Assembly: GCA_036785375.1 (NCBI GenBank)
Contig: JAWMAR010000352.1
Coordinates: 2,294,001-2,358,000 of the forward strand
Reading direction: 5' to 3'
Origin: Leucoraja ocellata
Lineage: Eukaryota
DNA: 64,000 bases
The stretch's first letter is position 1. Each line of letters opens with the position of its first letter. The position numbers and the translations under genes are program-made. This document shows, piece by piece, positions 3,026 through 58,965 of this stretch. Under the pieces are notes generated by a model, which saw only the letters and a program-made list of their open reading frames with translations, was not told the DNA's origin and did not search any database.

Positions 3026-4160
3026 TCTATCTTCTGTCTACACTATTACTAAAACTCTCATCTTGACCACTTCCCCTCTGTGTTGTTTATAAATTTGCTC
3101 AAAAACGGTTCAGATGTCGCCCGTCCACAAGCTGCCGAGAATAAAGCTGAAGCAGCAGAGTGTGGGCTGTTGACCCCCCTCCCACACCCCACTCCCCCAC
3201 CCCCCCACTCCCACATGCCCCCCACTCCCACACCCCCCTCCCCCACCCCACTCCCCTACACCTCCCCTCACCTGCACCCCCTCCCATACACCCCGCCCCC
3301 TACACATCCCTCCCATACACCCCCTCCCCTACACCCCCCTCCCCTACACCCCCCTCCCGTACACCCCCCTCCTGTACACCCACCTCCCGTACCCCCCCTC
3401 CCATTCACCCCCACTCCCAAACACTCCCCCTCCACTACACCCCCCTCCCGTGCACCATCCCCCTCCCATACAGCCCCCCTCCACAACACCCCCCTCCCCA
3501 ATACCACCACTCCCGTACACACCCATCCCCAACACTCCCCCTCCACTACACCCCCCTCCCGTGCACCATTCCCTTCCCCTAAACCCCCCTCCGATACAAA
3601 CCCCCTCCCCTACAACCCCCCTCCCGACCATCTCCCCTCCCGTACACCCCCCTCCCCTACACTACCCTCCCCAACACCCCCCTCCCCTACACTACCCTCC
3701 CCAACACCCCCCTCCCCTACACCCCCCTCCCCAACACCCCCCCCCCCCTACACCCCCCTCCCCAAAACCGCCCCTCCCCTACACACCCCTCCCCAACAAT
3801 CACCCTCCCCTACACCCCCCTCCCATACATACCCCTCCCCTACACACCCCTCCCCCACAGCCCCCCACAACCACACCCCCCTCCCCCACACACCACTCAC
3901 TCCCGCTCCCCCACAAACCCCCTCCCCCACACCACCCCATTCCCCACACTCCCCATCCCCCACACCCGCCTCCCCCACACCCCCCTCCCCCACCACACCC
4001 CTGCCCCACATCCATGCCCCACACCCACACACCCCCTACCACCCACACCCCTCCCACACACACGCCCTCCCCTAGCCACAAGCCAACCCTTAGCCACACA
4101 ACCCCACAAACCCCCTCCCCACACACCCCATCCCCCACACACACCCCCTTCCCCACATCC
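3026..4160 (+). mobile_element. non-autonomous Helitron-like 5' portion followed by a ~1 kb C-rich low-complexity tract
   Basis: A|TCTATC...ACACTATTACTAAAACTCTCATCTTG start matches the 5' end of the 35621-36034 element; 3170-4160 is CCCCTCCC/ACACCC-rich; no 3' CTAG end seen. Confidence 0.5.
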
Positions 4161-4660
4161 TGACTTTGGGTGCTGCCTGTACGGAGTTTGCCCGTTTACA
4201 GATTGTATTCTGCTGCTGCAAGTAAGAATCTCATTGTACTATCTGGGACATGTGACAATAAAACATTCTTGAATCTGGCCTCTTGACCTGCTTGGGTTTT
4301 TATGGTTTCCTCCCACATTCCAATGACGTGCAGGTTTGTAGGCTAATTGGCTTGGCAACATTGTAAATTGTCCCTCGCGTGTGTAGGATAGTGTTAGTGT
4401 GCGGGGGATCGCTGGTCGGCACAGACTCGATGGGTCGAAGGGCCTGTTTCCACGTTGTGTCTCTAGACTAAACACAGAACTAGTGTGTGAACGGGTGATC
4501 GATGGTCTGCGCGGACACGGTGGGCTGAAGGTCCTGTTTCCGTGTTGTATCTCAAAAAGTAAACATAGAACTAGTGTGTTAACGGGTGATCACTGGTCGG
4601 CATGGACTGGGTGGGCCGTGGGGGCCTGTTTCTGTGCTGTATCTCTAAACTAAACTAAGC
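4160..4660 (+). mobile_element. V-SINE/HE1-type SINE body with tandemly repeated 3' ends
   Basis: Central domain GGTTTCCTCCCACA; three copies of ...GATC..TGGTC...GGCCTGTTTC...TCTCTA(A/G)AC at about 4395-4658. Confidence 0.65.
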
Positions 4661-21100: not shown

Positions 21101-24100
21101 TTTGCTTCCTGTTTGCCAGCCAGTTCTCTATCCACATCAATACTGAACCTCCAATACCATGTGCTTTAAGTTTGCATACTAATCTCTTATGTGGGACCTT
21201 GTCGAAAGCCTTCTGGAAGTCCAGATACACCACATCCACTGGTTCTCCCTTATCCACTCTACTAGTTACATACTCGAAAAATTCTATAAGATTCGTCAGA
21301 CATGATTTACTTTTCATAAATCCATGCAGACTTTGTCCAATGATTTCACCACTTTCCAAATGTGCTGCTATTCCATCTTTAATAACTGACTAGCAGTTTC
21401 CCCACTACCGATGTTAGACTAACTGGTCTGTAATTCCCCGTTTTCTCTCTCCCTCCCTTTTTACATTAACTACCCTCCAATCCTCAGGATCTTCTCCAGA
21501 ATCTAAAGAGTTTTGAAAAATTATCACTAATGCATCCACTATTTCTGTGGCTACTCCCTTAAGTACTCTGGGATGCAGCCGATCTGGCCCTGGGGATTTA
21601 TCGGCCTTTCATCCATTCAATTTACCTAACACCACTTCCCGGCTAACCTGGATTTCACTCAGTTCCATCTCATTTGACCACTGGGCCCCTGCTATTTCCG
21701 GCAGATTATTTACTTCTTCCTCAATGAAGACAGAACCAAAGTAGTTATTCAATTGGTCTGCCATGTTCTTGTTCCCCATGATCAAATCACCTGTTTCTGA
21801 CTGCAAGGTACCTACATTTGCTTTGACTAATCTTTTTCTCTTCACATATCTATACAAACTTATGCAGTCAGTTGTTATGTTCCCTGCCAGTTTTCTTTCA
21901 TAATCTATTTTTCCTTTCCTAAATAAGCCCTTTGTCCTCCTCTGCTGGACTCTGAATTTCTCCTAATCCTCTGGTAGGCTGCTTTTTCTGGCTAATTTGT
22001 ATGCTTCATCTTTTGTTTTGATACTATCCCTGATTTGCCTTGTTATCCACGAATGTACTAACTTCCCTGATTTATTCTTTTGCCAAACTGGGAAGAACAA
22101 TTTTTGTAGTTCATCCATGCAGTCTTTAAATGCCTTCCATTAGCTATCCACCGTCAACCCTTTAAGAATTAATTGCCAATCTATCTTGGCCAATTCACGT
22201 CTCATACCCTCAAAGTTACCTTTCTTTAAGTTCAGAAACCTTGTTTCTGAACTAATTACATCACTCTCCATCCTAATGAAGAACTCAACCATATTATGGT
22301 CAATCTTGCCCTAGGGGCCACGCACAACAAGACTGTTAACTAAAGTGCCAGTCCCACGAGCATGCGACTGCATGCAGCGAGCGCGACCAAACCGGAAGCG
22401 GGGGCCGCGCGGAGGTTGAATGATCCCCGTACAGGGCCTGTCCCACCAGCATGCAACTGCATGCAGCGAGTGCGACCAAACCGGAAGCGGGTGCCGCGCG
22501 TAGTTCGAGTGATCCCGTACGAGTTGAGGTGAAGTTTGAGCAAAGTCCGCGGGATGGTCACGCTAGGCGTACGCTGTCAAGATGCTGCGTAGGGCATCGA
22601 GACCCTGCACATGCCCGTTGAAGTAGTGCGTACGGCCTCAATGGGGCTGCGGGCCGGCAGGCCGTTGCCGCGCGGAATTTTTGAACTGTGAGTTTTTCGG
22701 AGCCCCGTGCGATGTTGGGACCTGCTCCGCACATCTCTATACGGCTCCGGCGATCGAAGTGGGACTGGCCCCGCGAGGCCGTACGGCTCAAGCGACCACG
22801 TTAGTTCGAGCTTGCCGCATGCAGTCGCATGCTCGTGGGACAGGCCCTTAACCCTTCATCATTACTCAATACCCAGTCTAGAATAGTCTGCTCTCTCATT
22901 GGTTCCTCTACATGGTCGTTTAGAAAACTATCCCGCATACATTCCAAGAAATCCTCTTCCTCAGCACCCTGCCAATTTGATTCACCCAATCTATATGTAG
23001 ATTGAAGTCACCCATTATAACTGTTTTAACTTTGTTGCACGCATTTCTAATTTCCTGTTTGATGCCATCTCCAACTCCACTACTACTGTTGGGTGGCCTG
23101 TACACAACTCCCACTAGCGTTTTCTGCCCCTTAGTGTTTCACAGCTCTACCCATATCGATTCCACATCCTCCAAGCTAATGTCCTTCCTTTCTATTGTGT
23201 CAATCTCATCGCTAACCAGCAATGCTACCCCACCTCCTTCTCGTTTCTGTCTATCCCTCCTGAATATTGAACATCCCTGGATGATCAGCTCCCGGCCTTG
23301 GTCACCCTGGAGCCTTGTCCAACTATATCATATTCATTAATAACTATCTGCACATTCAACTCATCCACCTTATTAAGAATGCTCCTTGCATTGAGACATA
23401 AAGCCCGAAACTATGTTTCTATGTTTCTATGTTTCTATGAAACGTTGCCTATTTCCTTCGCTCCATAGATGCTGCTGCACTCGCTGAGTTTCTCCAGCAT
23501 TTTTGTATACCTGAGACATAAAGCCTTACGGCTTGTTTTTACAACACTCTTACCCCTCATACAATGATGTTGAAAAGTGGCCCTTTTTGATTTTTGCCCT
23601 GGATTTGTCTGCCTGCCACTTTTACTTTTCACCTTGCTAACTATTGCTTCTACCCTAGTTTTACCCCCCTCTGTCTCTCTGCTCACACATTTAAGAAATC
23701 CACCAGCTCTTATTCTCTGTTTATTATATTTTTCTTCTTTCTCCCCTACATGTTGGGTCTGAGTGCTTCCCTTCTCTGCCTCCTGCCTCACACACTGTCT
23801 ACTAGCTTTCTCTATTTGAGTCCCTCCCCCCAACCGTTCTAGTTTAAAGTCTTCCCAGTAGCCTTTGCAAAATCAACCCGCCAGGATATTGGTCCCCCTC
23901 GGGTTCAAGTGCAACCCGTCCTTTCCAAAAGAGGTCCCAATGATCCAGAAACTTGAATCCCTGCTCTCTGCACCAGTCCTTCAGCCACGCATTTATCCTC
24001 CACTTCACTCCATTCCTACTCTCACTGTCGCACAGGCAGTAATCCTGAGATTGTAACCTATGCGGTCCTTCTCCTTAACTCTCCTCCAAACTCCCTAAAT

Positions 24101-30100: not shown

Positions 30101-33100
30101 TCAATGTGATCATGGCTGATCATCCCCATTGGGCTTTATTCTTTCGAGCGCAGAAGGTTAAGGGGGGACTTGATAGAGGTTTTTAAAATGGTGAGAGGGA
30201 TAGACAGAGTTGACGTGGAAAAGCTTTTCCCACTGAGAGTAGGGAAGATTCAAACAAGGGGACATGACATGAGAATTAAGGGACTGAAGTTTAGGGGTAA
30301 CATGAGGGGGGACTTCTTTACTCAGAGAGTGGTAGCTGTGTGGAATGAGCTTCCAGTGAAGGTGGTGGAGGCAGGTTTGTTTTTATCATTTAAAAATAAA
30401 TTGGATAGTTATATGGATGGGAAGGGAATGGAGGGTTATGGTCTGAGCGCAGGTATATGGGACTAGGGGAGATTATGTGTTCGGCACGGACTAGAAGGGT
30501 CGTGATGGCCTGTTTCCGTGCTGTAATTGTTATATGGTTATATGGTTATCAGTACCCCGTTCCTTCCTTCTCCCCATATCCCATGTCTCCGCTATTTTTA
30601 AGAGCCCTATCTAGCTCTCTCTTGAAAGTATCCAGAGAACCTGCCTCCACCGCCCTCTGAGGCAGAGAATTCCACAGACTCACAACTCTCTGTGAGAAAA
30701 AGTGTTTCCTCGTCTAATTTCAAAATGGCTTACTCCTTATTCTTAAACTGTGGCCCCTGGTTCTGGACTCAATGCATTTTGTTGTCTCTGTACTGTACAC
30801 TGACAATGACAATTAAAATTGAATCTGAATCTGAATCTGAATCTGACTCCCCCAACACCAGGAACATGTTTCCTGCCTCTAGTGTGTCCAAGCCCTTAAC
30901 AATCTTATATGTTTCAATGAGATACCCTCTCATCCTTCCAAACTCCAGAGTGAACAAGCCCAACCGCTCCATTCTCTCAGCATATGACAGTCTTGCCATC
31001 CCGGGGATTAATCTTGTAACCCTACGCTGCACTCCCTCAATAGCAAGAATGTCCTTCCTCAAATTAGGGGACCAAAACTGCACGCAATACTCCAGGTGTG
31101 GTCTCACTAGGGCTCTGTACAACTGCAGAAGGTCCTCTTTGCTCCTATATTCGATTCCTCTTGTTATAAAGGCCAACATGCCATTCACTTTCTTCACTGC
31201 CTGCTGTACCTGCATGCTTACTGATGTTTTAGGACCCCCAGATCCCATTGTACTTCTCCTTTTCCCAACTTGACACCATTTAGATAGTAATCTCCCTTCC
31301 TGTTTTTGCTACCAAAGTGGATAACCTCACATTTATCTGCATTAAACTTAATCTGGATGCATCTGCCCACTCCCCCAACCTGTCCTAGCCACTCTGCATT
31401 CTCATAGCATCCTCCTCACAGTTCACACTGCCACCCAGCTTTGTGTTACCTGCAAATTTGCTAATGTTACTTTGAATCCCTTCATCCAAATCATTGATGT
31501 ATATTGTAAATAGCTGTGGTCCCAGCACCGAGCCTTGCGGTACCCCACTAGTCACTGCCTGCCATTCTGAAAGGGACCCGTTAATCCCTACTCTTTGTTT
31601 CCTGTCTGCCAACCACTTCTCTATCCAGGTCAGCACTCTACCCCAATACCATGTCCCCTAATTTTACCCACTAATCTCGTATGTGGGACCTTAGTTGAGT
31701 ATGTGTTTTGTTATTTATTCTATGTTATGTTATGACTGCAGGCTAAACCATTTAGTTGCACTGAATGACAATAACATTGAATCTGAATCTGAATCAAATG
31801 CTTACTGAAAGTCCAGGTACACTACATCCACTGGCCCTCCCTTGTCCATTTTCTGAGTTTCATCTTCAAACAATTCCAGAAGATTAGTCAAGTCAAACTC
31901 AGCGGGTGAGGCAGCATCTATGGAGCGAAGGAAATAGGCAACGTTTCGGGTCGAGACCTTTCTTTAGACCGATGTGAGTGTAGGGCGGGGCGGGAAGAAG
32001 AAAGGAAGAGGGCTGTGGGAGAACTGTGGGCTGAGGGAGAACTGGGAAGGTGAGGGTAAAGCCGGTACTACCTGAAATTAGAGGTCAATGTTCATACCGC
32101 TGGGGTGTAAACTGCCCAAGCAAAATATGAGGTGCTGCTCCTCCAATTTATGATGGGCCTAACTCTGGCCATGGAGGAAGCCCAGGACAGAAAGGTCGGA
32201 TTCAGAATGTGAGGAAGAGTTGAAGTACTGAGCCACTGGGAGATCAGGTTGGTTATTGCAATGCTGGAGTAACTCAGCGGGACAGGCAGCATCGCTGGAG
32301 GGAAGGAATAGGTGACATTTTGGGGCGAGGCCTTTCTTCAGACTGGTGATATTTGTATAAGGTACTTGTACTCCCTGGTAAACTGTTTAACAATGGAGAG
32401 CATCTGCAACACACTGCCAAGGGCAGTGATGGAGGCAGATAGGACAGATCCTTCTCTCCAGAGATGCTGCCTGTCCCGCTGAGTTTAATCCAGCATTTTG
32501 TGTTTGATCTCCTAGAAATATAGAAAAATAGGTGCAGGAGTAGTCCATTCGGCCCTTCAAGCCAGTACCACCATTCAATATGATCTTGGCTGATCTACTA
32601 AAATCAGTATCCCCGAGTCCTGATTTTTCCCCATCCCTTGATTCCTTTAGCCCTAAGCGCTAAATCCAACTCTCTCTTGAAAAAGATCCAGTGAATTGGA
32701 CTCCACTGCCTTCTGCGGCAGATAATTGCACAGATTCACAACTCTCTCATGTCTTGTTCCTCCTTCTCCAGATGCACCAGTGATTTCCTGGGATTCGGGA
32801 TGCACTCACACACCTGAGAGTGTCACCTGTGTGTGTGCGGCCAGGTGCAACCCACCCGGAGAGCTCACCTGGCACCTCCCCCTCGCCAACTTCAGCGGAA
32901 ATCAAACCCGCGGACATCTCCACACCTGGCAGGTGGCAAGCGGGCATCTGGTGAATGGCTCCCTCACTCTGAGAGGGGGTGGGGGAGGAGAGGACGTGAC
33001 GGCCGTGTGCTCAGTCCGAAACCGGCACGGGGAAGCCATGTTCATGGTGTATCTGTGGACGGAAGGTGAGGACATTTATGGGCGAGGGAAGTCAGAGAGC

Positions 33101-38082: not shown

Positions 38083-41000
38083 GCTTTATTTCAGATACAG
38101 GTCCATATAACACATCAAACAGTATAAAGAATTACAAAAATACATTAAAAAATTGCATATTAGCCTAAAAGATATACAAGCTATTGCACCAATGCTGTCT
38201 TAGCCTAGAAGTGAATCTATAGCAGCTTTTCAGAGGGCTGACTAGGGCTTCAATTATGTGGTTCTCTGACTTGTCCAGGCGACACATAAAACTAAACATC
38301 AGCTGTCTTAAGAGTGCCTCACAGGTTGGCACTCTAGTAGACAGAGACAATTGACTGGCACTATGCCACCTAGGAACACGAAGTAGCAACCTCATTGCAT
38401 CATTGTACGCTACCTTAAGCCTCTGCATACACCTTTTCTTATAATTAGACTACAATTGAACAGTATATAACGGTGTGATGTAGGTTCTGAACAGGGAACA
38501 CTTCACAGAGTCAGAGCACATAGAAAACTTCCTTATAAGCATGTTGGCTTGAAGATAAATTTTACAGCGCTGTCGGTAGAGGTCTTTGTCATCCGTCCAG
38601 TCATCAGATATGACATGACCTAGGTATTTAATTTCCTCACACACTGCAAGAGGACTGTCTGACAAATAAAAGGTCGGAAAGGTTGATTCCCTGTCCTCAG
38701 CGCTACTAACTATCATTATGCGGCTTTTCTTAGCGTTATTCCCTTTATCCTGTATCTGTACACTGTGGACGGCTCAATTGTAAACATGTGTTGTCTTTCC
38801 GCTGACTGGATAGCACGACACAAAAGCTTTTCACTGTACCTCGTTACACGTGACAATACATTATACTGAAAACACACCTCTGGTTGTTCTTACAGATAAA
38901 AGCTTCAGTATTTGGATACAAGTTTTGCTCAGACCAGGGATAATAATACTGATGGCTGTGCTAGCTGGATTCTTCATCAACAAGTATATACTGCGGTAAG
39001 TTTAAATAAATCCACATTTTTACGAGAATGGTTAACATATGATGACCGTTTGTCACTTACTGGGCCTGTAGTAGCTGGAGTTTAGAAGGATGAGGGGGAG
39101 ACCTCATTGAAATGTAGTGAATAGTGAATGGCCTGGATTGAGTGGATATGGAGTGGATGTTTCCAGTAGTGGGATAGTCTGGGACCAGAGGCGACAGCCT
39201 TAGGATTAAAGGACTACCTAAAGGAAGAAGAGGAGGAGTTTCTTCAGTCAGAGGGTGGTGAATCTGTGTAATTCTTTGCCACAGAAGGCTGTGGAGGCCA
39301 AGCCAATCGATAGGTTTAAGGCAGAAATAGATAGGTTCTTGATCAGTACGGGAGTTAGGGTTATGGGGAGAAGGCAGGAGAATGGGGTTGAGAGGGAAAG
39401 ATAGATTCAGCGGAGTAGAATTGAATTGCAGAGTAGACTTGATGGGCTGAATGGCCTAATTCTGTCCCTTGAACTTATGAAGGGTGGAGCCCACAATGGC
39501 ACTTTGTTAGCTGGGGAAGGAGTGCTAAAGACACGGATAGAAGGATGCGAACATCTAAACCTGTCCCATCCATGTACCTGTCTAACTGTTCCTTAAATAT
39601 TATTCACATGGCTCAACTACTTCCTCCGGTAGCTCGTCCCATTCATCCACTACCCTTTGTGTGAAAATGTTAGCGCTGAGGTTCCTATTGAATCTCCCCC
39701 CCCCCCCCCCCCCACACCTTAAAGCTCTGTCCTCTGCTCCATGATTCCCCACTCTGGGCAAGATGCTCTGTGCGTCTACCCGATCTATTCCTCTCATGAT
39801 TTTAAACACCGCTATAAAATCACCCCTCATCCTCCTGTGTTCCAAGGAATAGAGAAGCCGCCTGCTCATCCTCTCCCTGTAGCTCAAGCCCTCGAGTCCT
39901 GGCAACATACACGTAAATCTTCACGGCACCCTTTCAAACTTGACAACATCTCCCCGACAATATGGTGCCCAGAACGGAACACAATACTCTAAATGCATTG
40001 AAACCTACTGAATAGTGAAAGGCTTGGATTGAGAGGATGTTTCCACTAGTGGGAGAGTCTAGGACTAGAGGTCGTAGTCTCAGAATTAAAGGACGTTCCT
40101 TCAGGAAGCAGATGAGAGGAATTTCTTTAGTCGGTGGTGAATCTGTGGAATTCTTTGCCGCAGAAGGCTGTGGAGGCCAAGTCAATGGATATTTTTTAAG
40201 GCAGAAATGGATAGGTTATTGATCAGTACGGGTGTCAGGGGTTATGGGGAAAAAGGCAGGCAAATGGGATTAAGAGGAAGAGTTAGATCAGGCATGATTG
40301 AATGGCAGAGTAGACTTGATGGGCCGAATGACTTCATTCTGCTCCTATCATTAATGACCTCATGACTTTATGACCAACATCTAATACAACTGCAACTTTG
40401 TACTTGGACTTTGCTGATGTGCTGTAAACTTGGTGTGATCTTCTGTTGCTGCAGGAGGGAAGATGCTTCAGGAAACCAAGACCCCAATGTGCTGAACAGC
40501 CCATACTCTGCCATCAATCAGGTAGTGGAACTTTGTATTTAATCTCAAATACGGATGATACAAACGTGGGTACAAAAAGCTGGAGTAACTCAGTGGAACA
40601 GGCAGAATCTCTGGAGAGAAGGAACAGGTGATGTTTCGGTCGAGACTCGAGGGGCCTGAGCTACAGAGAGAGGTTGAGGAGGCTGGGATTCTATTCCTTG
40701 GAGCGCAGGGTGATGAGGGGTGATCTTATGGAGGTGTATAAAATCATGAGAGGAATAGATCGGGTAGATGCACACAATCTCTTGCCCAGAGTAGGGGAAT
40801 CGAGGACCAGAGGACATAGGTTCAAGGTGAAGGGGAAAAAAATCTGAGGGTTAACTTTTTCACACAAAGGGTGGTGCGTGTATGGAACGAGCTGTTGGAG
40901 GAGGTAGTTCAGGCTGGGACTATCCCAAAGTTTAAGAAACAGTTAGAAAGGTACATGGACAGGACAAGTTTGGAGGGATATGGACCAAGCGCAGGCAGGT

Positions 41001-41578
41001 GGGACTAGTGTAGCTGGGACATGTTGGCCGGTGTGGGCAAGTTGGGCCGAAGGGCCTGTTTCCACAATGTATGACTCTATATAGAAGGTGATGTAGAGAG
41101 AGATAAAGAACAATGAATGAAAGATAGATGTAAACAAAGTAACGATGATAAAGGAAACAGGCCACTGTTAGTGGTTTGTTGGGTGAAAACGAGAAGCTGG
41201 TGCGACTTGGGTGGGGGAGGGATGGAGAGAGAGGGAACACAGGGCTACCTCAAGTGAGAAAAATCAATGTTCATATCACTGGGCTGCAAGCTGCCCAAGC
41301 GGAATATGTGATGCTGGTCCTGCAATTTGCGTTTAGCCTCACTCTGTCAATGTTGGACAGAAAGGTCAGTGTGGGAAGGGGAATTAAAGTATTTAGCAAC
41401 CGGGAGTATGAATATTGATGTATCTAACCTCATGAGTGTGTGTGAGAGAGGGTGTGAGTGTGAAAGAAAGTTTGAGAGAGGGAGACAGTGCTAGAAGGGG
41501 GGGGGGGGACAGAGTGTGTGAAACTGCGAGTTTGAGACAGAGTGCGTGAGGGAGAAAGAGCAGAGTGAGAAAGAAAGA

Positions 41579-44622: not shown

Positions 44623-44873
44623 TGTACCCCAGTTAAATTTTGCGTCCACGTGGGTGAGGATCTATGATCCAGTGACCTTTCGTGAAATCACCCTATAGAA
44701 AATCAATAGGGAACAAGATGCTAATTTCCAAGTATGAAAATGGCCATAACTGTTTAAATACTTGAGATGTGAAAGTGAATTAGGTGTCAAATTAAACTTC
44801 TTGTTATGCTTTATCTGATGGGATAAACTGCAGACTTGATCTTTTAAATCTCAAAATTTTGTAACATTGCTAC

Positions 44874-46305
44874 ATTACTGCCTGTCCATTATCGTCAATA
44901 TTCAGGCAACAATTAGAGAAGTTGAATTTTCCACACACCCCTCCTTTTTCGGCTAGGATGTAGTCCAGGGCCAATCGATTTAGGTATATTGCTGTTCTCA
45001 TCTGTGTTTGCTCCTTTGCCAACATCTCTAGTGCTGCAGCCGTCCGATGAGTGATCACCTCCAATACAGCCTGCAATCGGATTATCCGGTTTAGCATGTA
45101 CACTGGGGTACGATATCCCCAGGAACCATCCTGAGCCCAGGTGGCTGGCCCATAGTATGAGATGATTCGGGCCGGAGGCCACTCATCATCCTCCCAGGTT
45201 CCTATGTCTAACTCTCTTTTCTTCCTTTGTAAGTCATCAAACACTGGCGTGCCCAGCATTCGTCCTCCTTCATCTGGCAACAAAAAGAATCCCGGCTGCA
45301 CCAGCCCAATAAAACACGCTCCACTCCATTTTCCCAGAAGTACTGAATAGGCCTTATGTCCACAGATCCAGAGTAATCCCTCTGGAGCAGGTCCACTCAC
45401 CGTGTTACTTTCCCAGAGATCCCGTAAGACTGGTAACCCCATATGGGTTGTTTCCTGTGCAGTTCCAGATCCAGCTCTTGTCTGTCTTGTCTCTGACTGG
45501 GGCAATGATTGTACAGTTCTCCCAGTCCTCTTCGGCCAGATACCATTTAGGTTGCTCAGGCCACCAGGTCCGTGTATGGTTTTCCCACAAGGTTAGGATG
45601 CGTTGACAAGGACTGATGCCGACTTCTTCTTTCCCCGGAGTTCTTGGTCGGGCTATACATTCCGTTCCTAGTGGAGTGTCGGTCAAGAGCCACTCCTGAG
45701 GTCCTGGATCTCCTCCTTCCGTGATGTTCCACTCAAATAGGTCCCACACTTCGACAGTTGATCCCCTCCAAGGCCATCGAGAACTCATAAAAGGTCCTCC
45801 ACAAACCCAGCAGTCCTTAACATCCAGCGTCTGAGCAATCCTGGTCCACGAAGAGATTCCCTCCCAATTCAGGAATTTCTATCTGCTTCTGTATCTCCTC
45901 GTACAAGGATGCATATAGTTGAGGTCTCTTAGTTGGGGCTGGTTGAGTTATCTCTTTTTCTTGTAGCCCCTTTATCAGTATTTCCTTTTCCTTGTCTAAA
46001 TATTCCTTCCCCAACTGGGACCCTGTCCCCCATTGCCCGGTTTTCCATTAGCAAAGCCATCTCTCTCCTCTGGGGCAGATTCAATACATCCTCATTCCTG
46101 TGTATCCCAAATTCTGCACTAAGTAGTATTCTACTCCCTCCTTACAACTGGTTCTGGTTTTATGGGTATAACACGAGTCATGCACATAGAAATGATAGGT
46201 AAAATACCTTCTGGTTTGTCCGCCATATCTGCTGGGGTGGTAACATTTATCACAGCTGTCCATACATTTACTTACAGCGACGATCATAATTAGCACGAAT
46301 GCCAA
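44874..46305 (-). pseudogene. env: ERV env, frameshifted and truncated before the membrane anchor
   Basis: Signal peptide; CWVCGGP; furin site RKKR; [37 protein letters not shown]; [14 protein letters not shown]; CX7CC. Confidence 0.9.
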
Positions 46306-46323
46306 GCACTGTATCGTAATCTT

Positions 46324-49300
46324 TTAGTTCAATCGTTCTTTATCAAAGATCAGAGTCAGTGGTTTCTTTCCTTGTCTTACTGTCCAGTCCCCCTCAGCCG
46401 GAGGTTCCACTGGTCCCTTTATTCGCACTGCGTGTGTCCACCCTTTTTCTTTTGTCCGCACTGCTGTTTCCGTGGTCAATAGTACCAAATACGGACCAGT
46501 CCAACAGGGTTGCAACTTTTCTTCCTTCCACGATTTTACAAGGACCCAGTCTCCCGCTTTCACAGAATGGATCGGAAAGTCAAGAGGGGGGATTTCGTAG
46601 GGGGATACTGCTATATCCTTTTGTGGAGCGGTTCGAATTCTGAGCAAGGCTATTGGCAAACACTTAGTCCAAGGTAGCCTAGTCTCCTCCATTAATTTGG
46701 TAATTTGTGTCTTCAAAGTGCCATTCATCCTTTGCACCATTCCCGGACTTTGTGGATGCCAGGGAGTATGCAACTTCTATTTTATCCCTAGGGCATCACA
46801 GATGAGCAAGTGGGCCTTTGAGGCGAAATGGGTTCCTCGATCTAAATCGAGAGATTCGATGATTCCATACCGCAAGATTATTTGTTCCAATAGAATTTTG
46901 GCTACCACCTGAGAAGTGGCATTTACTGTGGGGAATGCTTCCACCCAACGGGTAAAGTGATCCACCACCACTAGGAGGTATTTCTATTTCTGTATCCTGA
47001 TGAGTTCACTAAAATCTACCTGTACTCTCTGGAATGGCCTGATGGCTAACTGCTGCCCTCATCACTTTCTTATTTATCTTCTGACAGATCACACAGCTTG
47101 AGACTCCTTGTTTAGCCAGAGTGTATATCCCCCTGCAAGCATACGTACGTAAAAGAGTGTCACATAATGCCTGAGCCCCCAGTGTGACTGGGAATGTAAT
47201 CTTCCCAATAATTCTCTGATAACCTCCTTATTTAGCAGTTGCTTCCCATCCGGTGTCCACCATCGTCCATCTTTTGTTATTCTTGCTCTCAGCTCATTCA
47301 TCCTATCTATATCGAATTCGGAGAACACGGGTATCTTCTCTATCCCTTCCCTGAGAGGTATTAGAGACATTATCTTTACCGTCCCCTGTAAAGCTGCCCG
47401 TTTTGCCGCCTCGTCCGCGGCTCTGTTTCCCCGGGCCTCTGGAGAATTTCCCTTCTGGTGTCCTGCCACATGTACTACTGCTATTTGCTCTGGCTTTGTT
47501 AATGATTCCAAGGTTTTCTCAATCAACTTTTCATGTGCTAACTCTTTCCCTCTCGCTGTTATCATTCCCCTCTCCTTCCAAATCTTTCCAAAGGTATGCA
47601 CCACCCCAAAGGCATATATTAAATCAGTATATATGGTGCCTTTTTTGCCTTCAAGTAACTCCAATGCACGCATCAGGGCATAGAGCTCACAAGACTGAGC
47701 TGACCAGCTCCCAGGTAATCGTCCAGATTCTATATCACTTAACGTATCCCCGTCGATTATAACGTATCCACTGTGTCTTTTCCCATCTATGCACCAGGAT
47801 GACCTGTCTATGAACCATCGGCTTCCCTCGGCCAGAGGCTGTTCCTCAAGGTCTTCCCTACTCTTGGTCTGCAATTATATTATTTTGCTACAATCATGCT
47901 CTGGGTTCCCTGTCTCCTCTTCTTTTTCTTCGGGCGGGTACAGGAACTGAGAGGGGTTTAAGTTTTTGTCCGTATTTATGGTCAAATCATCCTTTTCCAT
48001 CAGAATAGCTTCATATTTTAATATCCTCGAGTGTCAACCACCTACAAGACTTCTGTGTCAATATTGTTCTTACTGTATGTGGGGTGGAGACCACCAAGGC
48101 CCCCCGAAGGTCAACTTCCTGCTCTCCTCTACTAGGTTTGCTGTGACTGTATACAGACAGGCCATCCTCGTGACACTGGGTCCAATATCTTTGATAAAAA
48201 TGCCACGGGCTGCCCGTTTACCCCTCTCCTTTTGAGTCAATACCCCGAGAGCTATCACGTTTTCTGCATTTACAAACAGATGGAAGGGTTGGTCTATTCA
48301 AGGCAGGGCCAAGACAGGGGTGGTTATCAAACTATTCTTCAGCTGGTGGAAATCCTGTTGTTCTTTCGGGTCCCATTCTACCTTATCTTTCTCATCTCCT
48401 AGCTTATTATACAAGAACTGGACTTGTCTGACGTAGTCATCAAACCAGAGTCTACAGTACCCAATTAGCCCCAGAAATGTTCTGATTTCCTTTTTATTCC
48501 GAGGCATCGGCAAGCCTGTGATTCCTGCGATTCTTTCAGGTTTTATTCTTCGTTTTCTCCCACTAATCATGTGGCCCAGGTACTTCACCTTTTGTTCCAC
48601 AAACTGGGTATCTTTGATACCCTCAGACCCTTTTGTCCCAGGAAATTCAGTAATATTATAGTGGCATCTCACACCTCCCCTTCTTCTTCTCCAGAGATCA
48701 GTAGGTCATCCACATACTGCAAGAGCTGGATCTGGGGGGGGACATGGGTATTCCTCTAACACTTGTTCCAAGATTTGGCCGAACAGGTTTGGAGATTCTG
48801 TAAATCCCTGAGGAAGTACTTTCCAACGGAACTGTTGCTTTCTTCTAGTTATTGGGTTTTCCCATTCAAAGGTGAACAAGTCTCGGGTTTCCTCATCCAA
48901 GGGACAACTCCAGAAGGCATCTTTTAGTTCTGCCACACTGAACCACTTGTGACTGGGGGGTATCCGTCCCATAACCGTGTATGGTTTGGGGACCACAGGA
49001 TGTCTACCCCGGACCACCTTATTTAGTTCTCGAAGATCTTGTACAAGCTGGAATGTTCCATCCGTCTTCCGTACGGGTAAGATCGGGTATTATAAGGAGA
49101 CATGCAACTTTCCAATACTCCCTCCTTCAATAGATTTTGCATGATTGGTTGGAGTCCCTTTCGTCCCTCGATGGAGATGGGGTACTGCCTGACTCGCACG
49201 GCATCATACCCTTCCCGGAGGGCTATCCGGAGGGGTGGTATTCTTAATCCCCCTCTATTTCCTTCCTTAGCCCAGATCTGGTCATTGATCCTCTGTTCGT

Positions 49301-49650
49301 CTTCTTCTTTTAGTTTATATAGTTGGACCACTATCCGCCCTTCTACAGGTGCAGTTCCTATTCCTAACTGGATCTGCAGATCCTGTCCCATTAAGTTTAC
49401 TCCGGCCTGTGGAACTAGAATCAAATCTTCCACCGCTTCCCTATTTTCATATTTGACTTTTACTCCTTCTATCACTTTCCCTCCTACTCCAGAAATGTTC
49501 ACATGCCCTTCTCCTGTTGCCATCCCTTTGGGTATTCTGGTCACACTTGATCTCTCAGCTCCCGAATCCACCATGAACACTGTGTCTTCTCCTTGGGGTC
49601 CGAGTTTTAAATTTACTAGGGGTTCCCGTTTGTGTCCAGTTAATAACATT
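46324..49650 (-). pseudogene. pol: ERV pro-pol pseudogene
   Basis: ORFs 49023-49649, 48706-49017, 48298-48672, 47089-47874, 46777-46971 and 46324-46773. Confidence 0.92.
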
Positions 49651-50300
49651 TGACTGGTAATTGTCTTTTTTAATGTTTTTTAAATCATTTCTTTTTAAAT
49701 GGCTCACAAGCAGCGTTTGAGTAATTTCGTAGTAACCGGAACCGACCTGACTCGCAGGGTAATTAACATTGCGGGGCAAGTTTTTGTGTGTGACATAGGG
49801 TTACATTCATAATTCTGTTTGTTCATAATTGTGTTAATTCTTGTTAAAGAATAAAATGTTTATAAACACACATACATGAATGTGATATAAATGTATATAA
49901 TCATATAACGCACACAATTATATTTCTTCTGATCCAATAATGAACTTTATTTCAGACTAGACAAGGGACATTAAATAAGAAACATTGTAAATAAGAAACA
50001 TTGTAAACCTCCCCGTAACTTCACACACCTTAGGCCTAATATCCCCCCCCCCCCCCCGGCACTGCCTCGCCTGCCCCCTCACTACAATGTCTCCGCCCCC
50101 TCCTATGCCCCTTTCCCCACTGCCCCGGGCCGCGCACTCCCTCTCCCTGCTGCGGAAACAAAGATGCGATCTTTGGCCGGAAGTAAGATGGCGGAACAAG
50201 ATGGCGGAGGCTGGTTGCTAAAATGGGTTCTAGAATTGCCCATGAGCGTACTACACGTTTGCGTAAGAGTAACCCATCTTGCTCCGCTATAAGATCTTTG
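49651..50300. mobile_element. unclassified repeat fragment (probably DNA-transposon-derived)
   Basis: Abruptly replaces ERV gag and the H3 promoter; duplicated AAGATGGCGGA motif; ends CTATAAGATCTTTG. Confidence 0.35.
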
Positions 50301-50340: not shown

Positions 50341-50757
<417 letters not shown>

Positions 50758-50780
50758 ACTCGGAACCAAGGACAACAAAA

Positions 50781-50822
50781 GGCTCTTTTAAGAGCCACCA
50801 ACCCGGCTGTGGAAAGAGCTGT
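50781..50822 (+). promoter_or_regulatory. histone 3' stem-loop and histone downstream element
   Basis: GGCTCT-TTTA-AGAGCC (50781-50796) then ACCAA; purine-rich GAAAGAGCTGT at 50812-50822. Confidence 0.93.
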
Positions 50823-51180: not shown

Positions 51181-51600
51181 CTATAGGGTGATTTCACAAA
51201 AGGTCACTGGAGCGTAGATCCTGACCCACGTGACCGCAAATTTTAACAGGAGGACACTCGTCACTTCCGGTACATGTTAGTGAATGGGAAAACACGCACT
51301 TTCACACCCGTTAAAAACATCGAAAACAGCCAGTTTTTGAGCTGCAATTTACTGTGCCAGTCGGGGTGACCGTGAGGCACAGCTACCTAAATTTACAGTC
51401 CAAAAGAAAGATAGAAACTAAGGTAAATTCAAGAGGGAGCTGAAGGTGTAAAAACAGCGGAAGTGCTTAGTGGACATTTGTCGTGGAGATTTAAAGATCC
51501 AAAATATCGGGAATTATCGCGTTTGCTCGCTGCATTTCATCAAAAGTAAGGCATTATTGACTTTTTTATCTTTTTATCTTTATTCATTTATTACATGAAA
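51181..51600 (+). mobile_element. DNA-transposon-like end; inverted counterpart at 44625-44698
   Basis: CTATAGGGTGATTTCAC(A/G)AAAGGTCACTGGA...CCCACGTG shared in inverted orientation over about 75 bp. Confidence 0.55.
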
Positions 51601-51608
51601 AGTTTTAA

Positions 51609-52176
51609 AAGTGAAAAATCCATCAGTAAAATTGCAAAATCGTCCATGGTTCTCAGATGGGTGCAAAATGAAAACGTTTCTGAAGCTACATTTACCATTT
51701 TTTAAATTATCGTAAACTATCAATGCGTTTTGAAATAAAGCATCTCAAGCATCTATAGCTGCGACTAAATCTGCGTTAATACTCTCTTCTTGTTGCACGT
51801 ACACGTGCATGGCGTTCTTGTGCACATTGTTTATATTGCTCACAGTGGGTGCCCAATCAGGATTGTTGACATCATTCCATGCTGCAGGCTTGTCTGTTAT
51901 TAGATGATAAATAAATAAGTAGTTTGGGTGAATGTGCAGGGTTTAAACAAGAAACATTGAGAAATATATTTTGGCAAATAATAAAATGTCCAACTAACAG
52001 CTGACAATTATCCCATTCCTTAGCTTGCATCTGAGTAAAATTTATTTCAAAACGCATTGATAGTTTACGATTATTTAAATGGTAAATGTAGCTTCAGAAG
52101 CGTTTTCATTTTGCATGTTAAAACCTACCTGAGAACCATGGGCAATTTTGCAATTATACTGACGGATTTTTCACTT
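51609..52176. mobile_element. Kolobok-like MITE
   Basis: TTAA|AAGTGAAAAATCC...GGATTTTTCACTT|TTAA; imperfect TIRs of about 130 bp. Confidence 0.7.
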
Positions 52177-52506
52177 TTAATTAGTTAGAGAAAACTCCTT
52201 GTCCAGTCCCTCCCGACCACCATTGGAGACACCTCACACGTCCAACTCTTCAATAACTTGCAATTCTAGGACACCATTGGCTCATCGAATTTATGTTGTA
52301 TTTTTAATTGTCTACAGTATATTGTGTTGTTACTTGCGGGCAAAGCACCAAGGCAAATTCCTTGCATGTATACTTAATACTTGGCTAATAAAATGTATTC
52401 AATTCAATGCAATCCTATGGAGTCCCTTTACACCTCCATCACCCACCAGGAAAGGCCTCACAGTTCTTCTTTGAACAGAGACCCAATCAGTTCCCCTCTA
52501 TGAACA

Positions 52507-55440
52507 GTGTTTAAGAGGGAACTGCAGATGCTGGAGAATCAAAGGTTACACAAAAAAGCTGGAGAAACTCAGCGGATGCAGCAGCATCTATGGAGCGAAG
52601 GAAATAGGCAACGTTTCGGGCCGAAACCCTTCTTCAGACTGATCGGGGGCGGGGGTGGGTGGGGACAAGAAAGGGAAAAGGAGGAGTAGCCCGAAGGCTG
52701 GGGGATGGGAGGAGACAGCAGGGGGGCTGAGGAAGGGGAGGAGACAGCAAGGACTAACAAAATTGGGAGAATTCGATGTTCATGCCCCCGGGATGCAGAC
52801 TCCCCAAACGGAATATGAGGTGCTGTTCCTCCAATTTCCGGTGCTGCTCCCTGTGGCCATGGAGGAGACCCAGGACAGAGAGGTCGGAGACGGAGTGGGA
52901 GGGGGAGTTGAAGTGCTGAGCCACCGGGAGGTCAGCTTGGTTATTGCGGACCGAGCTGAGGTGTTCGGCGAAACGATCGCCCAACCTCCGCTTGGTCTCA
53001 CCGATATAGATCTGCTGACATCTAGAGCAGCGGACGCAATAGATGAGGTTGGAAGAGATGCAGGTAAACCTCTGTCGCACCTGGAACGATTGCTTGGGTC
53101 CTTGAACGGAGTCGAGGGGGGAGGTAAAGGGACAAGTGTTGCATCTCTTGCGGTTGCAAGGGAAAGTGCCCGGGGAGGGGGTGGACCGAGAGGGAAGGGA
53201 AGAATTGACAAGGGAGTTATGGAGGGAGCGGTCTTTGCGGAAGGCAGATATGGGGGAGATGGGAAGATGTGGCGAGTGGTGGGGTCACGTTGGAGGTGGC
53301 GAAACTGACGGATTACTTTTTGTATGTGACGGCTGGTGGGGTGAAAGGTGAGGACTAGGGGGACTCGGCCCTTGTTGCGAGTGCGGGGATGGGGAGAGAG
53401 AGCAGTGTTGCGGGGTATGGAGGAGACCCTGGTGCGAGCCACATTTATGGTGGAGGAGGGGAACCCCCGTTCCCTGAATAGTGAGGACATTTCAGATGTC
53501 CTGGTGTGGAACGCCTCATCCGTGGAGCAGATGCGGCGTAGACGGAGGAATTGGGAGTAGGGGATGGAGTCCTTACAGGAAGCAGGGTGGGAAGAAGTGT
53601 AGTCCAGATAGCCATGGGAGTCAGTGGGTTTATAGTGTATGTCGGTCAGGAGTCTATCACCTGCAATGGAGATAGTGAGGTCAAGGAATGGTAGGGAAGT
53701 GTCGGAAATGGTCCAGGTGTATTTGAGTGCCGGATGGAAGTTAGTGGTGAAGTGGATGAAGTCAGTCAGTTGTGTGCCGGTGCAGGAGGTGGCACCAAAG
53801 CAGTCGTCGATGTAGCGGAGGTAGAGCTCGGGGATGGGGCCCTGGTATGTATTGAACAAGGATTGCTCGACGTAACGTACAAATAGGCCGGCATAGCTGG
53901 GGCCCATGCGTGTGCCCATAGCTACGCCTTGTATTTGGAGGAAATGGGAGGAGTCGAACGTGAAGTTATTGAGGGTAAGGACCAGCTCCGCTAGGCGGAG
54001 GAGAGTGTCAGTGGCTGGGTATAGGTTGCTTCTCTGGTCGAGGAAGAACCGGAGGGCTATGAGACCATCGTGGTGGGGGATGGAGGTGTAGAGTGATTGG
54101 ACGTCCATGGTGAAGATGAGGGGGTGAGGGCCTAGAGAATTGAATGCGCGGAGACGACGGAGAGTGTCTGAGGTGTCTTGAACATAGGTAGGGAGGGATT
54201 TAACCAAGGGTGATAGGATGGAGTCAAGGTATTTGGAAATGAGTTCGGTGGGGCACGAACAGGCGGAGACAATGGGTCTTCCGGGACAGTCAGGTTTGTG
54301 GATTTTAGGGAGAAGGTAAAATCGGGCTGTGCGGGGCTGGGGAACGATGAGGTTGGAGGCTCGGTCGGGTAGGACATTGGAGTGGATGAAGTTGGTGATG
54401 GTGCTGGAGATGGTGGCCTGGTGCTCGTCAGTGGGGTCATGGTCCAGGGGTAAGTAGGAGGAGGTGTCCGATAGTTGGCGCGTGGCCTCAGCTTTGTAGA
54501 GATCGGCGTGCCAGACTACCACGGCACCTCCCTTGTCAGCGGGTTTGATAACCAAATCTGGGTTGTTGCGGAGTGAGTCGATGGCAGAACTTTCATGTGG
54601 TGAGAGATTGGAGTGAGACAGGGGAGTGGAGAAGTTGAGGCAGTTGATGTCGCGACGGCAGTTATTGATAAAAAGTTCTAAAGCCGGAAATTGGCCACGA
54701 GGGGGGTTCCACGAGGAGGGGGTGCGTTGGAGACGGGAAAAGGGGTCATCAGTGGGGGGCGAGGACTCCTTCCCATGGAAGAAAGCTGTGAGGCGGCGGC
54801 GACGGTAGAAGCGCTCCAAGTCGTGGTGGGCGCGGAATTCATTGAGGTGGGGACGGAGGGGGACAAAGGTAAGACCTCTGTTGAGGACGGTCCGTTCGGT
54901 GTTGGAGAGGGGGAGGTCGGGGGGGATGGTGAACACTCGACAGGGATGGGGGTTGGGGCCGGAGGAAGGCAGGTGGGGACGAGGCGATGTGTGGTGGGGG
55001 GGTGGTGGGTGGTCAGGGGGTGGGGTGGTGAGAGGGCTGTGGTGTGGGTGGGGAAGAGCAGGGGCCACACAGTTAGAGGGGGTGGGGGGAGGAGACTTAC
55101 AGTTAGAGGGGGTGGGGGGAGGAGACTCAGTCGAACTGCCACTGAGGTAGACCAGGCTGGGTCGACTGGCACTAGGACCCAGTGGAGTCAAACCCAGGAG
55201 AGTGGGAGAAAGCAGCGTGAGGGCTTCAGGCCCAGTGGAGAGTCCAGGCTCCAGGTAAGGCGACGGCTGTGGGTTGTTGGAGGGAGGTGGAGTGGCGCGG
55301 GTCAGCGGACCCGATGGTGAGAGTCCAGTGGTGCGGGTCAGCGGACCCGATGTTCGGAGTCGATGGGCGGTTGAGTCGGGGTCCGCGGGCGATGTGTGGG
55401 AGGTCCCGGTGGGCGGATGGTCGGCGGTGCGGTGCAGCGG
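52507..55440 (-). mobile_element. Penelope-like (Neptune-type) element, left arm
   Basis: ORFs 52780-55614 and 52754-53080: KPADKGG, MDVQSLYT, GVAMG, YLRYIDD; GIY-YIG LIYCVRCSRCQQIYIGET. Confidence 0.95.
52607..52641 (-). ncRNA. minimal type I hammerhead ribozyme motif
   Basis: Exact reverse complement of 58311-58345. Confidence 0.7.
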
Positions 55441-58407
55441 GGTGCTGCACCGCACCCCGCTCATCTCATCGCCTTCCCGGGCTGGCCGAGCCTTGCCGCC
55501 CCGCCGACCATCCGCCCACCGGGACCTCCCACACATCGCCCGCGGACCCCGACTCAACCGCCCATCGACTCCGAACATCGGGTCCGCTGACCCGCGCCAC
55601 TGGACTCTCACCATCGGGTCCGTTGACCCTCGCTACTGCACCTCCCTCCAACAACCCACAGCCGTCGCCTTACCTGGAGCCTGGACTCTCCACTGGGCCT
55701 GAAGCCCTCACGCTGCTTTCTCCCACTCTCCTGGGTTTGACTCCACTGGGTCCTAGTGCCAGTCGACCCAGCCTGGTCTACCTCAGTGGCAGTTCGACTG
55801 AGTCTCCTCCCCCCACCCCCTCTAACTGTAAGTCTCCTCCCCCCACCCCCTCTAACTGTGTGCCCCTGCTCTTCCCCACCCACACCACAGCCCTCTCACC
55901 CCCCCACCCCCTGACCACCCACCACCCCCCCACCACACATCGCCTCGTCCCCACCTGCCGTCCTCCGGCCCCAACCCCCATCCCTGTCGAGTGTTCACCA
56001 TCCCCCCCGACCTCCCCCTCTCCAACACCGAACGGTCCGTCCTCAACAGGTCTTACCTTTGTCCCCCTCCGTCCCCACCTCAATGAATTCCGCGCCCACC
56101 ACGACTTGGAGCGCTTCTACCGTCGCCTCCGCCTCACAGCTTTCTTCCATGGGAAGGAGTCCTCGCCCCCCACTGATGACCCCTTTTCCCGTCTCCAACG
56201 CAACCCCTCCTCGTGGAAACCCCCTCGTGGCCAATTTCCGGCTTTAGAACTTTTTATCAATAACTGCCGTCGCGACATCAACTGCCTCAACTTCTCCACT
56301 CCCCTGCCTCACTCCAATCTCTCACCACATGAACGTTCTGCCATCGACTCACTCCGCAACAACCCAGATTTGGTTATCAAACCCGCTGACAAGGGAGGTG
56401 CCGTGGTAGTCTGGCGCGCCGATCTCTACAAAGCTGAGGCCACGCGCCAACTATCGGACACCTCCTCCTACTTACCCCTGGACCATGACCCCACTGACGA
56501 GCACCAGGCCACCATCTCCAGCACCATCACCAACTTCATCCACTCCAATGTCCTACCCGACCGAGCCTCCAACCTCATCGTTCCCCAGCCCCGCACAGCC
56601 CGATTTTACCTTCTCCCTAAAATCCACAAACCTGACTGTCCCGGAAGACCCATTGTCTCCGCCTGTTCGTGCCCCACCGAACTCATTTCCAAATACCTTG
56701 ACTCCATCCTATCACCCTTGGTTAAATCCCTCCCTACCTATGTTCAAGACACCTCAGACACTCTCCGTCGTCTCCGCGCATTCAATTCTCTAGGCCCTCA
56801 CCCCCTCATCTTCACCATGGACGTCCAATCACTCTATACCTCCATCCCCCACCACGATGGTCTCATAATAATAATAATAATAATAATCATAGCCCTCCGG
56901 TTCTTCCTCGACCAGAGAAGCAACCTATACCCAGCCACTGACACTCTCCTCCGCCTAGCGGAGCTGGTCCTTACCCTCAATAACTTCACGTTCGACTCCT
57001 CCCATTTCCTCCAAATACAAGGCGTAGCTATGGGCACACGCATGGGCCCCAGCTATGCCGGCCTATTTGTAGGTTACGTCGAGCAATCCTTGTTCAATAC
57101 ATACCAGGGCCCCATCCCCGACCTCTACCTCCGCTACATCGACGACTGCTTTGGTGCCACCTCCTGCACCGGCACACAACTGACTGACTTCATCCACTTC
57201 ACCACTAACTTCCATCCGGCACTCAAATACACCTGGACCATTTCCGACACTTCCCTACCATTCCTTGACCTCACTATCTCCATTGCAGGTGATAGACTCC
57301 TGACCGACATACACTATAAACCCACTGACTCCCATGGCTATCTGGACTACACTTCTTCCCACCCTGCTTCCTGTAAGGACTCCATCCCCTACTCCCAATT
57401 CCTCCGTCTACGCCGCATCTGCTCCACGGATGAGGCGTTCCACACCAGGACATCTGAAATGTCCTCACTATTCAGGGAACGGGGGTTCCCCTCCTCCACC
57501 ATAAATGAGGCTCGCACCAGGGTCTCCTCCATACCCCGCAACACTGCTCTCTCTCCCCATCCCCGCACTCGCAACAAGGGCCGAGTCCCCCTAGTCCTCA
57601 CCTTTCACCCCACCAGCCGTCACATACAAAAAGTAATCCTCCGTCAGTTTCGCCACCTCCAACGTGACCCCACCACTCGCCACATCTTCCCATCTCCCCC
57701 CATATCTGCCTTCCGCAAAGACCGCTCCCTCCATAACTCCCTTGTCAATTCTTCCCTTCCCTCTCGGTCCACCCCCTCCCCCGATACTTTCCCTTGCAAC
57801 CGCAAGAGATGCAACACTTGTCCCTTTACCTCCCCCCTCGACTCCGTTCAAGGACCCAAGCAATCGTTCCAGGTGCGACAGAGGTTTACCTGCATCTCTT
57901 CCAACCTCATCTATTGCGTCCGCTGCTCTAGATGTCAGCAGATCTATATCGGTGAGACCAAGCGGAGGTTGGGCGATCGTTTCGCCGAACACCTCCGCTC
58001 GGTCCGCAATAACCAAGCTGACCTCCCGGTGGCTCAGCACTTCAACTCCCCCTCCCACTCCGTCTCCGACCTCTCTGTCCTGGGTCTCCTCCATGGCCAC
58101 GGCGAGCAGCACCGGAAATTGGAGGAACAGCACCTCATATTCCGTTTGGGGAGTCTGCATCCCGGGGCATGAACATCGAATTCTCCCAATTTTGTTAGTC
58201 CTTGCTGTCTCCTCCCCTTCCTCAGCCCCCCTGCTGTCTCCTCCCATCCCCCAGCCTTCGGGCTACTCCTCCTTTTCCCTTTCTTGTCCCCACCCACCCC
58301 CGCCCCCGATCAGTCTGAAGAAGGGTTTCGGCCCGAAACGTTGCCTATTTCCTTCGCTCCATAGATGCTGCTGCACCCGCTGAGTTTCTCCAGCTTTTTT
58401 GTGTAAC
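55441..58407 (+). mobile_element. Penelope-like (Neptune-type) element, right arm; RT plus GIY-YIG in one open frame
   Basis: ORF 55269-58172 with RT motifs, Cys linker CNRKRCNTC and GIY-YIG; 14-bp TSD around the whole dimer. Confidence 0.95.
58311..58345 (+). ncRNA. minimal type I hammerhead ribozyme motif
   Basis: CUGAAGA (58315-58321), A, GGGU-UUCG-GCCC stem II, GAAA, palindromic ACGU, GUU site. Confidence 0.7.
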
Positions 58408-58965
58408 CCCCTCTATGAACAACCTTGTCTCCCTGGCAGAAGCTGTCCTCCCCTCAATAATTTCTATTTTGGCTCCTCACGTTCTTCAGGTTAAACATGT
58501 AGCCATGAGTACTTGCACGGACCCAAGCTATTCCACATTTTTGTTGGTTATGTCAAACAATTCTTGTTCCAAATGTGCACTGGCACCATGCCCCAAATGC
58601 TTCCCTGCCGCATCAATAATTGCATCGGGACTGTCCCTTGCACCCGTGCAGAAACCATCGATTCCATTATCTTTACCATTAATTCTACCCTGCCCTCTTT
58701 CACGTGGCCGACTTTATAACCCATCTCCATCTTCTTGATCTCTCTGTCTCCCTCAAAGAGGACAGGCAATAGACTGGCATCTGCTGCAAACCTACTAACT
58801 TCCAATGTTATCTGTACACCTCCTTCCATCCTGCCCCTATATCCTTTGTGTCCTGTAGTTCTGCACTCACTCCCCTGTCCCCAGAAAGAACAGATCCTTT
58901 GATTCTCATCTTTCACCCCACCAGCCTCTACATACAACACATTATCCTCTGGCATTTACGCTAAC
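58408..58965 (+). mobile_element. old degenerate Penelope-like RT hosting the dimer (its other part is about 52420-52506)
   Basis: LQVKHVAMSTCTDPSY is a decayed LQIQGVAMGTRMGPSY; collinear across the TSD. Confidence 0.8.

Follow-up and report, generated by a model that had tools for sequence, protein, structure and literature searches.

The 64,000-nt stretch of DNA from Leucoraja ocellata analyzed here (the window; contig JAWMAR010000352.1, positions 2,294,001 to 2,358,000 of the forward strand) contained a 5.9-kb unit made of two arms of a young Penelope-like element (PLE), lying head to head within the reverse transcriptase (RT) gene of an older PLE and enclosed by one target-site duplication (TSD). 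The features of the unit, its target and a related stub were as follows, in window coordinates:

23392..23525, plus strand: solo stub of the same young family, 106 bp, 95.8% identical over 71 nt, with a perfect 14-bp TSD (23392-23405 / 23512-23525)
52198..52506, plus strand: left piece of the older, decayed PLE RT (the target), ending with the first TSD copy; recognized by tblastn on the empty site and by blastn, at 64% to the young arm across the site
52488..52506, plus strand: target stretch matching the end of the tail in 16 of 19 columns, noticed after the fact
52493..52506, plus strand: first TSD copy, 14 bp, or 13 bp if one base is microhomology
52507..55445, minus strand: left arm, a 5′-truncated, probably Neptune-type PLE with a tail; RT core at about 53797-54303
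52507..52544, minus strand: one-sided PLE tail of the left arm, 37-38 nt
52610..52637, minus strand: candidate minimal hammerhead-like core of the left pLTR (CTGAAGA, short stem II, GAAAC), read from the sequence; motif class as in the available text of PMC4209133
52757..53284, minus strand: left-arm linker CX4CxxC and GIY-YIG with CC core, no longer in frame with the RT owing to a 1-nt deletion near 53257
55426..55456, no strand: apex stem-loop, with a perfect 13-bp stem (55426-55438 / 55444-55456) and a 5-nt loop (55439-55443)
55444..58407, plus strand: right arm, a 5′-truncated, probably Neptune-type PLE lacking the tail
55457..55502, plus strand: 46 nt of family sequence found in the right arm only, flanked by a short CCCCGC repeat and in frame with the ORF
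56863..56886, plus strand: (ATA)n insertion of 24 nt, in frame, in the right arm only, duplicating a 5-nt flank
58315..58342, plus strand: candidate minimal hammerhead-like core of the right pLTR
58408..58421, plus strand: second TSD copy
58422..58961, plus strand: right piece of the older, decayed PLE RT

The TSD, CCCCTCTATGAACA, occurred exactly twice in the window, at the two positions above, and had no occurrence on the minus strand; the chance of such a duplication was ~9e-9 with fixed ends and 9e-5 when 50 nt of slack was allowed at each end. The arms were aligned outward, from 55425 downward and from 55503 upward, so that 52507-55425 (minus) was compared with 55503-58407 (plus) over 2,877 columns. 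They differed by 25 substitutions (0.87%), with an excess of transversions (15 of 25, against 10 transitions), and by six internal indels of 1, 2, 24, 3, 1, and 1 nt. At its 3′ end the left arm extended 38 nt beyond the end of the right arm, or 37 nt with the C at 58408 assigned to the element; because the next base of the family is a C and the TSD begins with a C, a 37-nt tail with a 13-bp TSD is a possible reading. When the insert and one TSD copy were removed, the flanks aligned to the young element with 64% identity over 481 nt, ungapped at the site (blastn), and a single tblastn segment of a shark relative spanned the reconstructed empty site. The insertion target was therefore the old PLE RT. 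With its single TSD, its collinear empty site and the family-rare letters shared by its arms (see below), the 5.9-kb unit is one insertion of a young PLE into an older PLE. A preliminary description of this DNA had proposed two near-identical arms of ~2.9 kb placed head to head, one 14-bp TSD around the unit, a left arm about 37 nt longer at its 3′ end, a decayed PLE RT as the target and a single insertion event, and all of these were confirmed (the TSD being 13 bp if the shared base is assigned to the element). The center was not a 63-nt spacer; it consisted of the 13-bp stem and 5-nt loop, followed by the 46 nt present only in the right arm.

Protein searches gave 356 relatives at E ≤ 1e-20 among 8,000 scored, and both RT and GIY-YIG were clear in these relatives. 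In the left arm, Pfam matches to RVT_1 (E 1.6e-5) and GIY-YIG (E 5.4e-4) were both under the curated cut-offs, and the right-arm ORF gave no Pfam match, with a frame open across RT and EN. The closest named proteins were from bamboo shark (67%) and devil ray (72%), the best matches ranging from 64 to 72%, while further relatives at ~50% identity comprised many unnamed proteins and a few from marine invertebrates. The GIY-YIG domain had a CC core, LIYCVRCSRCQQIYIG, with two cysteines between GIY and YIG, followed by two histidines (CCHH motif), and a DKG motif was present, ADKGG being invariant across a 20-sequence alignment. The linker carried CNRKRCNTC, a motif of the CX2-5CxxC type that was also found in 70 of the 71 relatives with a recognizable GIY-YIG CC core (71 of 120, among the matches listed). 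According to the available text of PMC8557442, this linker distinguishes Neptune and Nematis from Penelope/Poseidon, which lack it. An assignment to Penelope/Poseidon (Poseidon had been the first guess) was rejected because the motif was present, and the element is best described as a probable Neptune-type EN+ PLE, a call made from the linker motif, which Nematis shares, and not from a tree.

The element shares with the Neptune clade the C-terminal GIY-YIG with CC core, the CX2-5CxxC linker, the DKG motif and a pLTR with a candidate hammerhead-like core. As in EN+ PLEs in general, a PLE-type RT was followed by a C-terminal GIY-YIG in a single ORF, and an inverted 5′-truncated copy occurred together with a one-sided 30-40-nt tail and a TSD. 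The candidate hammerhead consisted of the core motifs CTGAAGA and GAAAC and a short stem; it had no Rfam match, and its predicted fold differed from the hammerhead fold. Helix I is poorly defined in minimal hammerhead motifs (PMC4209133, available text). In the Rfam scan only a histone stem-loop reached the gathering level, and weak matches near the left junction were due to chance. A direct 5′ pLTR or partial tandem was absent, both arms being truncated within a proline-rich open frame; the direct 5′ pLTR is optional in PLEs, in which all variants occur (PMC8557442, in part). Since both arms end inside the ORF, the copy was likely dead on arrival, with no promoter of its own. In the right arm, frameshifts near 55861 and 56047 compensate each other, and one nucleotide is deleted near 58163. 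The (ATA)n tract of this arm is a microsatellite born within an RT gene.

Further PLE copies occurred elsewhere in the window. The solo stub and the right arm shared a short 3′ end, to within one base. The 5′ end of the stub carried roughly three copies of an 8-nt unit that echoes the GAAAC motif in inverted form and looks like the product of repeated snap-back at the hammerhead. An older mini head-to-head PLE palindrome at ~1258-1513 had arms of 79% identity, a right-side tail (~1462-1500) and an imperfect 13-bp duplication. More decayed PLE ends lay at 31895-32346 (minus), 13672-13988, 27558-27652, 40574-40639 and 41241-41406, among them one partial tandem and one head-to-head pair. The window also contained a single C2-set immunoglobulin-domain exon (13167-13457, plus; Pfam PF08205, E 7.8e-9), to which tblastn added no second Ig exon in the window, a C-rich minisatellite of ~1.1 kb with a 15-16-nt unit (3050-4270) and an assembly gap of 163 N (678-840). 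Upstream of the 5.9-kb unit, a histone H3 copy (50350-50822, plus) had its 3′ stem-loop at 50776-50822 (Rfam RF00032) and a frame interrupted only by a TGA at codon 116 (50695-50697); it is a young pseudogene, a null allele or the product of a base error. Directly upstream of the H3 copy lay a broken endogenous retrovirus-like element in several frames (~44870-49700, minus), with Pfam matches to RT, RNase H and an MLV-type integrase C-terminal domain, and with protease-like and env-like stretches that had no Pfam match.

The left arm was compared, over the region 51500-55500, with contigs of three DNA-type runs and of one run (X15) that is possibly RNA, its type being a guess and its contigs, which show neither strand nor locus, covering the family rather than this locus. 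The young family was abundant, with 93,000-130,000 contig records per DNA-type run aligned to these 4 kb, and its summed depth dropped steeply from the 3′ end toward the apex, as expected for 5′ truncation. Immediately 5′ of the hammerhead core, at 52639-52643, ~70-116 contigs per listed position in runs X1, X2, and X4 left the family sequence for AT-rich DNA, which suggests this as the starting point of many family stubs. The variant comparison covered 40 of 164 rows, 30 of the 40 lying within the element. The arms agreed at 22 of these 30 rows, and at five of the 22 (53778, 53889, 54374, 54642, and 55209) no less than 94% of the depth summed over the family carried another letter in each of the three DNA-type runs, a share that rose to at least 99.9% at 53889 and 54374; this depth is a rough measure and not a copy number, and some differences went uncounted. 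All five of the family-rare shared letters changed an amino acid. At the listed rows where the arms differed, the family letter was that of the right arm in eight of eight cases; these differences are therefore private changes of the left arm, which was the reference of the comparison, so that private changes of the right arm cannot appear in it. Coding differences between the arms were mostly non-synonymous (19 of 24), which fits neutral decay and not two active sources. The preliminary description had asked whether the arm letters trace to one or two sources, and the shared family-rare letters among the 40 of 164 rows point to one. Judging from these letters, which gene conversion could also give, the arms were probably almost identical at first, being derived from a single source copy or cDNA, and have since decayed neutrally.

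Contigs in all three DNA-type runs joined 55500 to 55427 on opposite strands, and therefore the 46 nt confined to the right arm are contiguous family sequence. Because the tail is found only in the left arm and these 46 nt only in the right arm, neither arm is, as it now stands, a plain copy of the other. The short 3′ end appears to be a start site of the family, since the right arm ends no more than one base from the end of the solo stub, which has its own 14-bp TSD. Independent truncation of the two arms within 10-55 nt of each other would have a uniform chance of 0.7-4%, and fold-back contigs at the hammerhead hairpin do exist in the family (32 in X4 at 52627). As each arm has private family sequence, the truncations lie close together, hairpin fold-back contigs occur and the solo stub has its end at the same point as the right arm, the favored and quite probable origin of the unit is one in which both target strands were cut and primed at two RNA start points and the halves were joined by snap-back at a short hairpin. 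The element's enzyme likely cut both strands of the target 13-14 bases apart, and both cut ends likely primed DNA synthesis at two fixed start points of the element RNA. The long site would have served the left (top-strand) primer, whose product includes the tail, and the short site the right (bottom-strand) primer. A single long cDNA would then have folded back at the apex and been copied, or two cDNAs would have annealed at the hairpin. The arms would have been near-identical on arrival, with neutral decay since. A Poseidon PLE studied in vitro cleaves and extends the two target strands, initiates at a pair of RNA sites on either side of the tail, and is predicted to be a dimer (PMC11167929, available text); these data come from a Poseidon element, whereas the element here is probably Neptune-type. 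Dual-strand priming and fold-back had been offered as alternatives in the preliminary description. Two primers are indicated by the tail together with the fixed short end, and snap-back by the symmetric hairpin apex; the two mechanisms are compatible, and both probably operated here.

The main rival is a pure fold-back with a later deletion, in which synthesis of a cDNA started at the tail end, this cDNA turned back on itself at the apex and served as template for the second arm, the endonuclease resolved the product 37-38 nt short, and the left arm later lost 46 nt. This sequence of events has a small chance of being the true one. The hairpin apex, the symmetric ends and the shared family-rare letters all agree with it, as does the C-rich repeat in the 9 nt beside the apex, in frame on the sense strand of the left arm, and both self-priming (PMC3846280) and EN-mediated resolution of the tail (PMC8557442) are proposed in the available parts of the literature. 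The 46-nt difference between the arms could be a later deletion, which would permit a pure fold-back. However, copying would have to stop exactly where the solo, non-palindromic stub ends, a point matching the RT start site of a relative in vitro, and the later deletion is an extra requirement. Two separate back-to-back insertions, subsequently homogenized by gene conversion, are unlikely: PLEs do insert into their own kind, as the PLE target here illustrates, and conversion could yield the shared rare letters, but a single TSD surrounds the unit with none inside, the empty site is exactly restored, and the same hairpin truncates both arms. Least likely of all is a fold-back artefact of library or assembly. 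Long inverted repeats are hard to assemble (PMC8557442, available text), and no contig across the locus junctions or the empty site, nor any spanning read, was present among the listed rows (24 of 3,575 loose ends and 15 of 335 joints, uninformative either way), yet the flanks, far from mirroring each other, are collinear and together make up a single old RT, 25 substitutions and six indels (the 24-nt insertion among them) separate the arms, and the tail and TSD follow a biological pattern seen also in two other insertions of the window.

Inverted 5′-truncated structures, mentioned as a PLE trait in the preliminary description, are indeed a published signature of these elements (PMC8557442, PMC3846280, available text). 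The architecture is not unusual: the 37-nt overhang is the published "tail", a one-sided PLE feature of 30-40 nt (available text of PMC8557442, PMC3846280, and PMC11167929), and head-to-head is the most frequent inverted PLE arrangement, with junction palindromes read as self-priming (PMC3846280, in part). In the available descriptions of canonical EN+ PLE insertions (PMC8557442; the rotifer units Pen2a_Av and Pen2_Av in PMC3846280), the likeness extends to a 5′ head-to-head copy, flanking inverted repeats, one TSD, a one-sided tail, a short palindrome at the inverted junction and a host site that is another retroelement. The rotifer units have 8-10-bp TSDs and a 31-bp tail and invert only the ~200-bp pLTR. 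The skate unit differs in its 13-14-bp TSD, in the lack of a direct 5′ pLTR and in the length of its arms, each of which spans 2.9 kb and almost the complete ORF. In PAc (Poseidon of Anolis carolinensis), two start sites likewise bracket the tail and both strands are cut and extended, which would explain the asymmetry seen here (PMC11167929, available text). PAc belongs to another clade and prefers AT-rich targets unlike its RNA start site, whereas the TSD here has a G+C content of 50% and the target site is similar to the tail.

The 19 target bases up to the top-strand cut matched the sense of the left-arm tail end in 16 of 19 columns (two gaps, one mismatch), ending one base from the end of the tail. 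Because of this match the left junction folds as a hairpin, which was exposed by a chance IRE-like Rfam match. Anchored at the cut and the tail end, in a test designed after the match had been seen, the alignment scored 19, a value reached by none of 4,991 window positions, none of 2,628 PLE sense positions and one of 3,000 shuffles. In an unanchored comparison (44-nt window, either strand), 82 of 7,866 window positions, 12 of 870 PLE positions and 45 of 5,000 shuffles scored as high (~1%). The match was found in one of three insertions, the tail-less stub having an anchored score of 5 and the older tailed mini-palindrome a score of 8, vs. 19 here. The PLE tail might conceivably be a targeting guide, its RNA pairing with the target strand (R-loop) and setting the cut in register with the long start site, such that tail-like targets would favor two-primer dimers; this idea is a doubtful one. 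The fly endonuclease is reported to need the tail for recognition and cleavage (cited in PMC11167929), and the start sites of PAc are not homologous to the cut DNA (both in the available text of PMC11167929). No report of tail-like targets was found in the literature on PLE tail and target preference, and none on PLEs in shark, skate or elasmobranch, within a search of openly available article texts. A 23-nt pLTR pattern had no match in metagenome contigs or in viral contigs, and a protein profile search of viral contigs gave no relative. Metagenome relatives were scanned for inverted repeats in the best 80 of 360 confirmed loci; these were present in 14 of the 80, none of which had a usable TSD and tail. 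One of them, the marine metagenome relative L014, had an inverted hammerhead-bearing pLTR around its ORF (1005-1133 and 3536-3663, upstream of the ORF), and no TSD was found for it. Tail-guided targeting cannot be shown by one locus. If the match between tail and target holds genome-wide, the unexplained tail would gain a role in target choice, which bears on PLEs as programmable gene-insertion tools.

That the dimer was retained because a hairpin RNA silences the family is very improbable, and silencing by Penelope inverted repeats is an idea already in print for the fly element (PMC3681739, available text). A transcript of the two 2.9-kb arms, which are 99% identical, would form a duplex if it were made, siRNAs have been mapped to inverted repeats of Penelope in transgenic flies (PMC3681739, in part), and the H3 copy, 1.7 kb away, is the closest gene on the upstream side that is oriented toward the unit. 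However, the center has no promoter-bearing pLTR, the arms are decaying with indels, the upstream H3 copy has a premature stop, and silencing of the element by such siRNAs is described as inefficient (same source, available text). A hairpin RNA would need read-through from outside, because both arms lack a 5′ pLTR. Rearranged copies of Drosophila Penelope resemble the skate unit in their long inverted repeats of the element body and their potential dsRNA; the fly siRNA was shown by small-RNA mapping (fly data from the available text of PMC3681739).

The unit is thus a real, single, young PLE insertion with long arms, and its architecture is ordinary for PLEs and already known. What is new here is that the arms share family-rare letters, indicating one source, that the center is a 13-bp stem with a 5-nt loop, and that a 106-bp stub with a 14-bp TSD has the same short end. 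The locus is valuable as a clean and young record of how such an element transposes, a cycle described as still undefined in reviews, and its long arms allow one to ask whether both halves share one template; they appear to.
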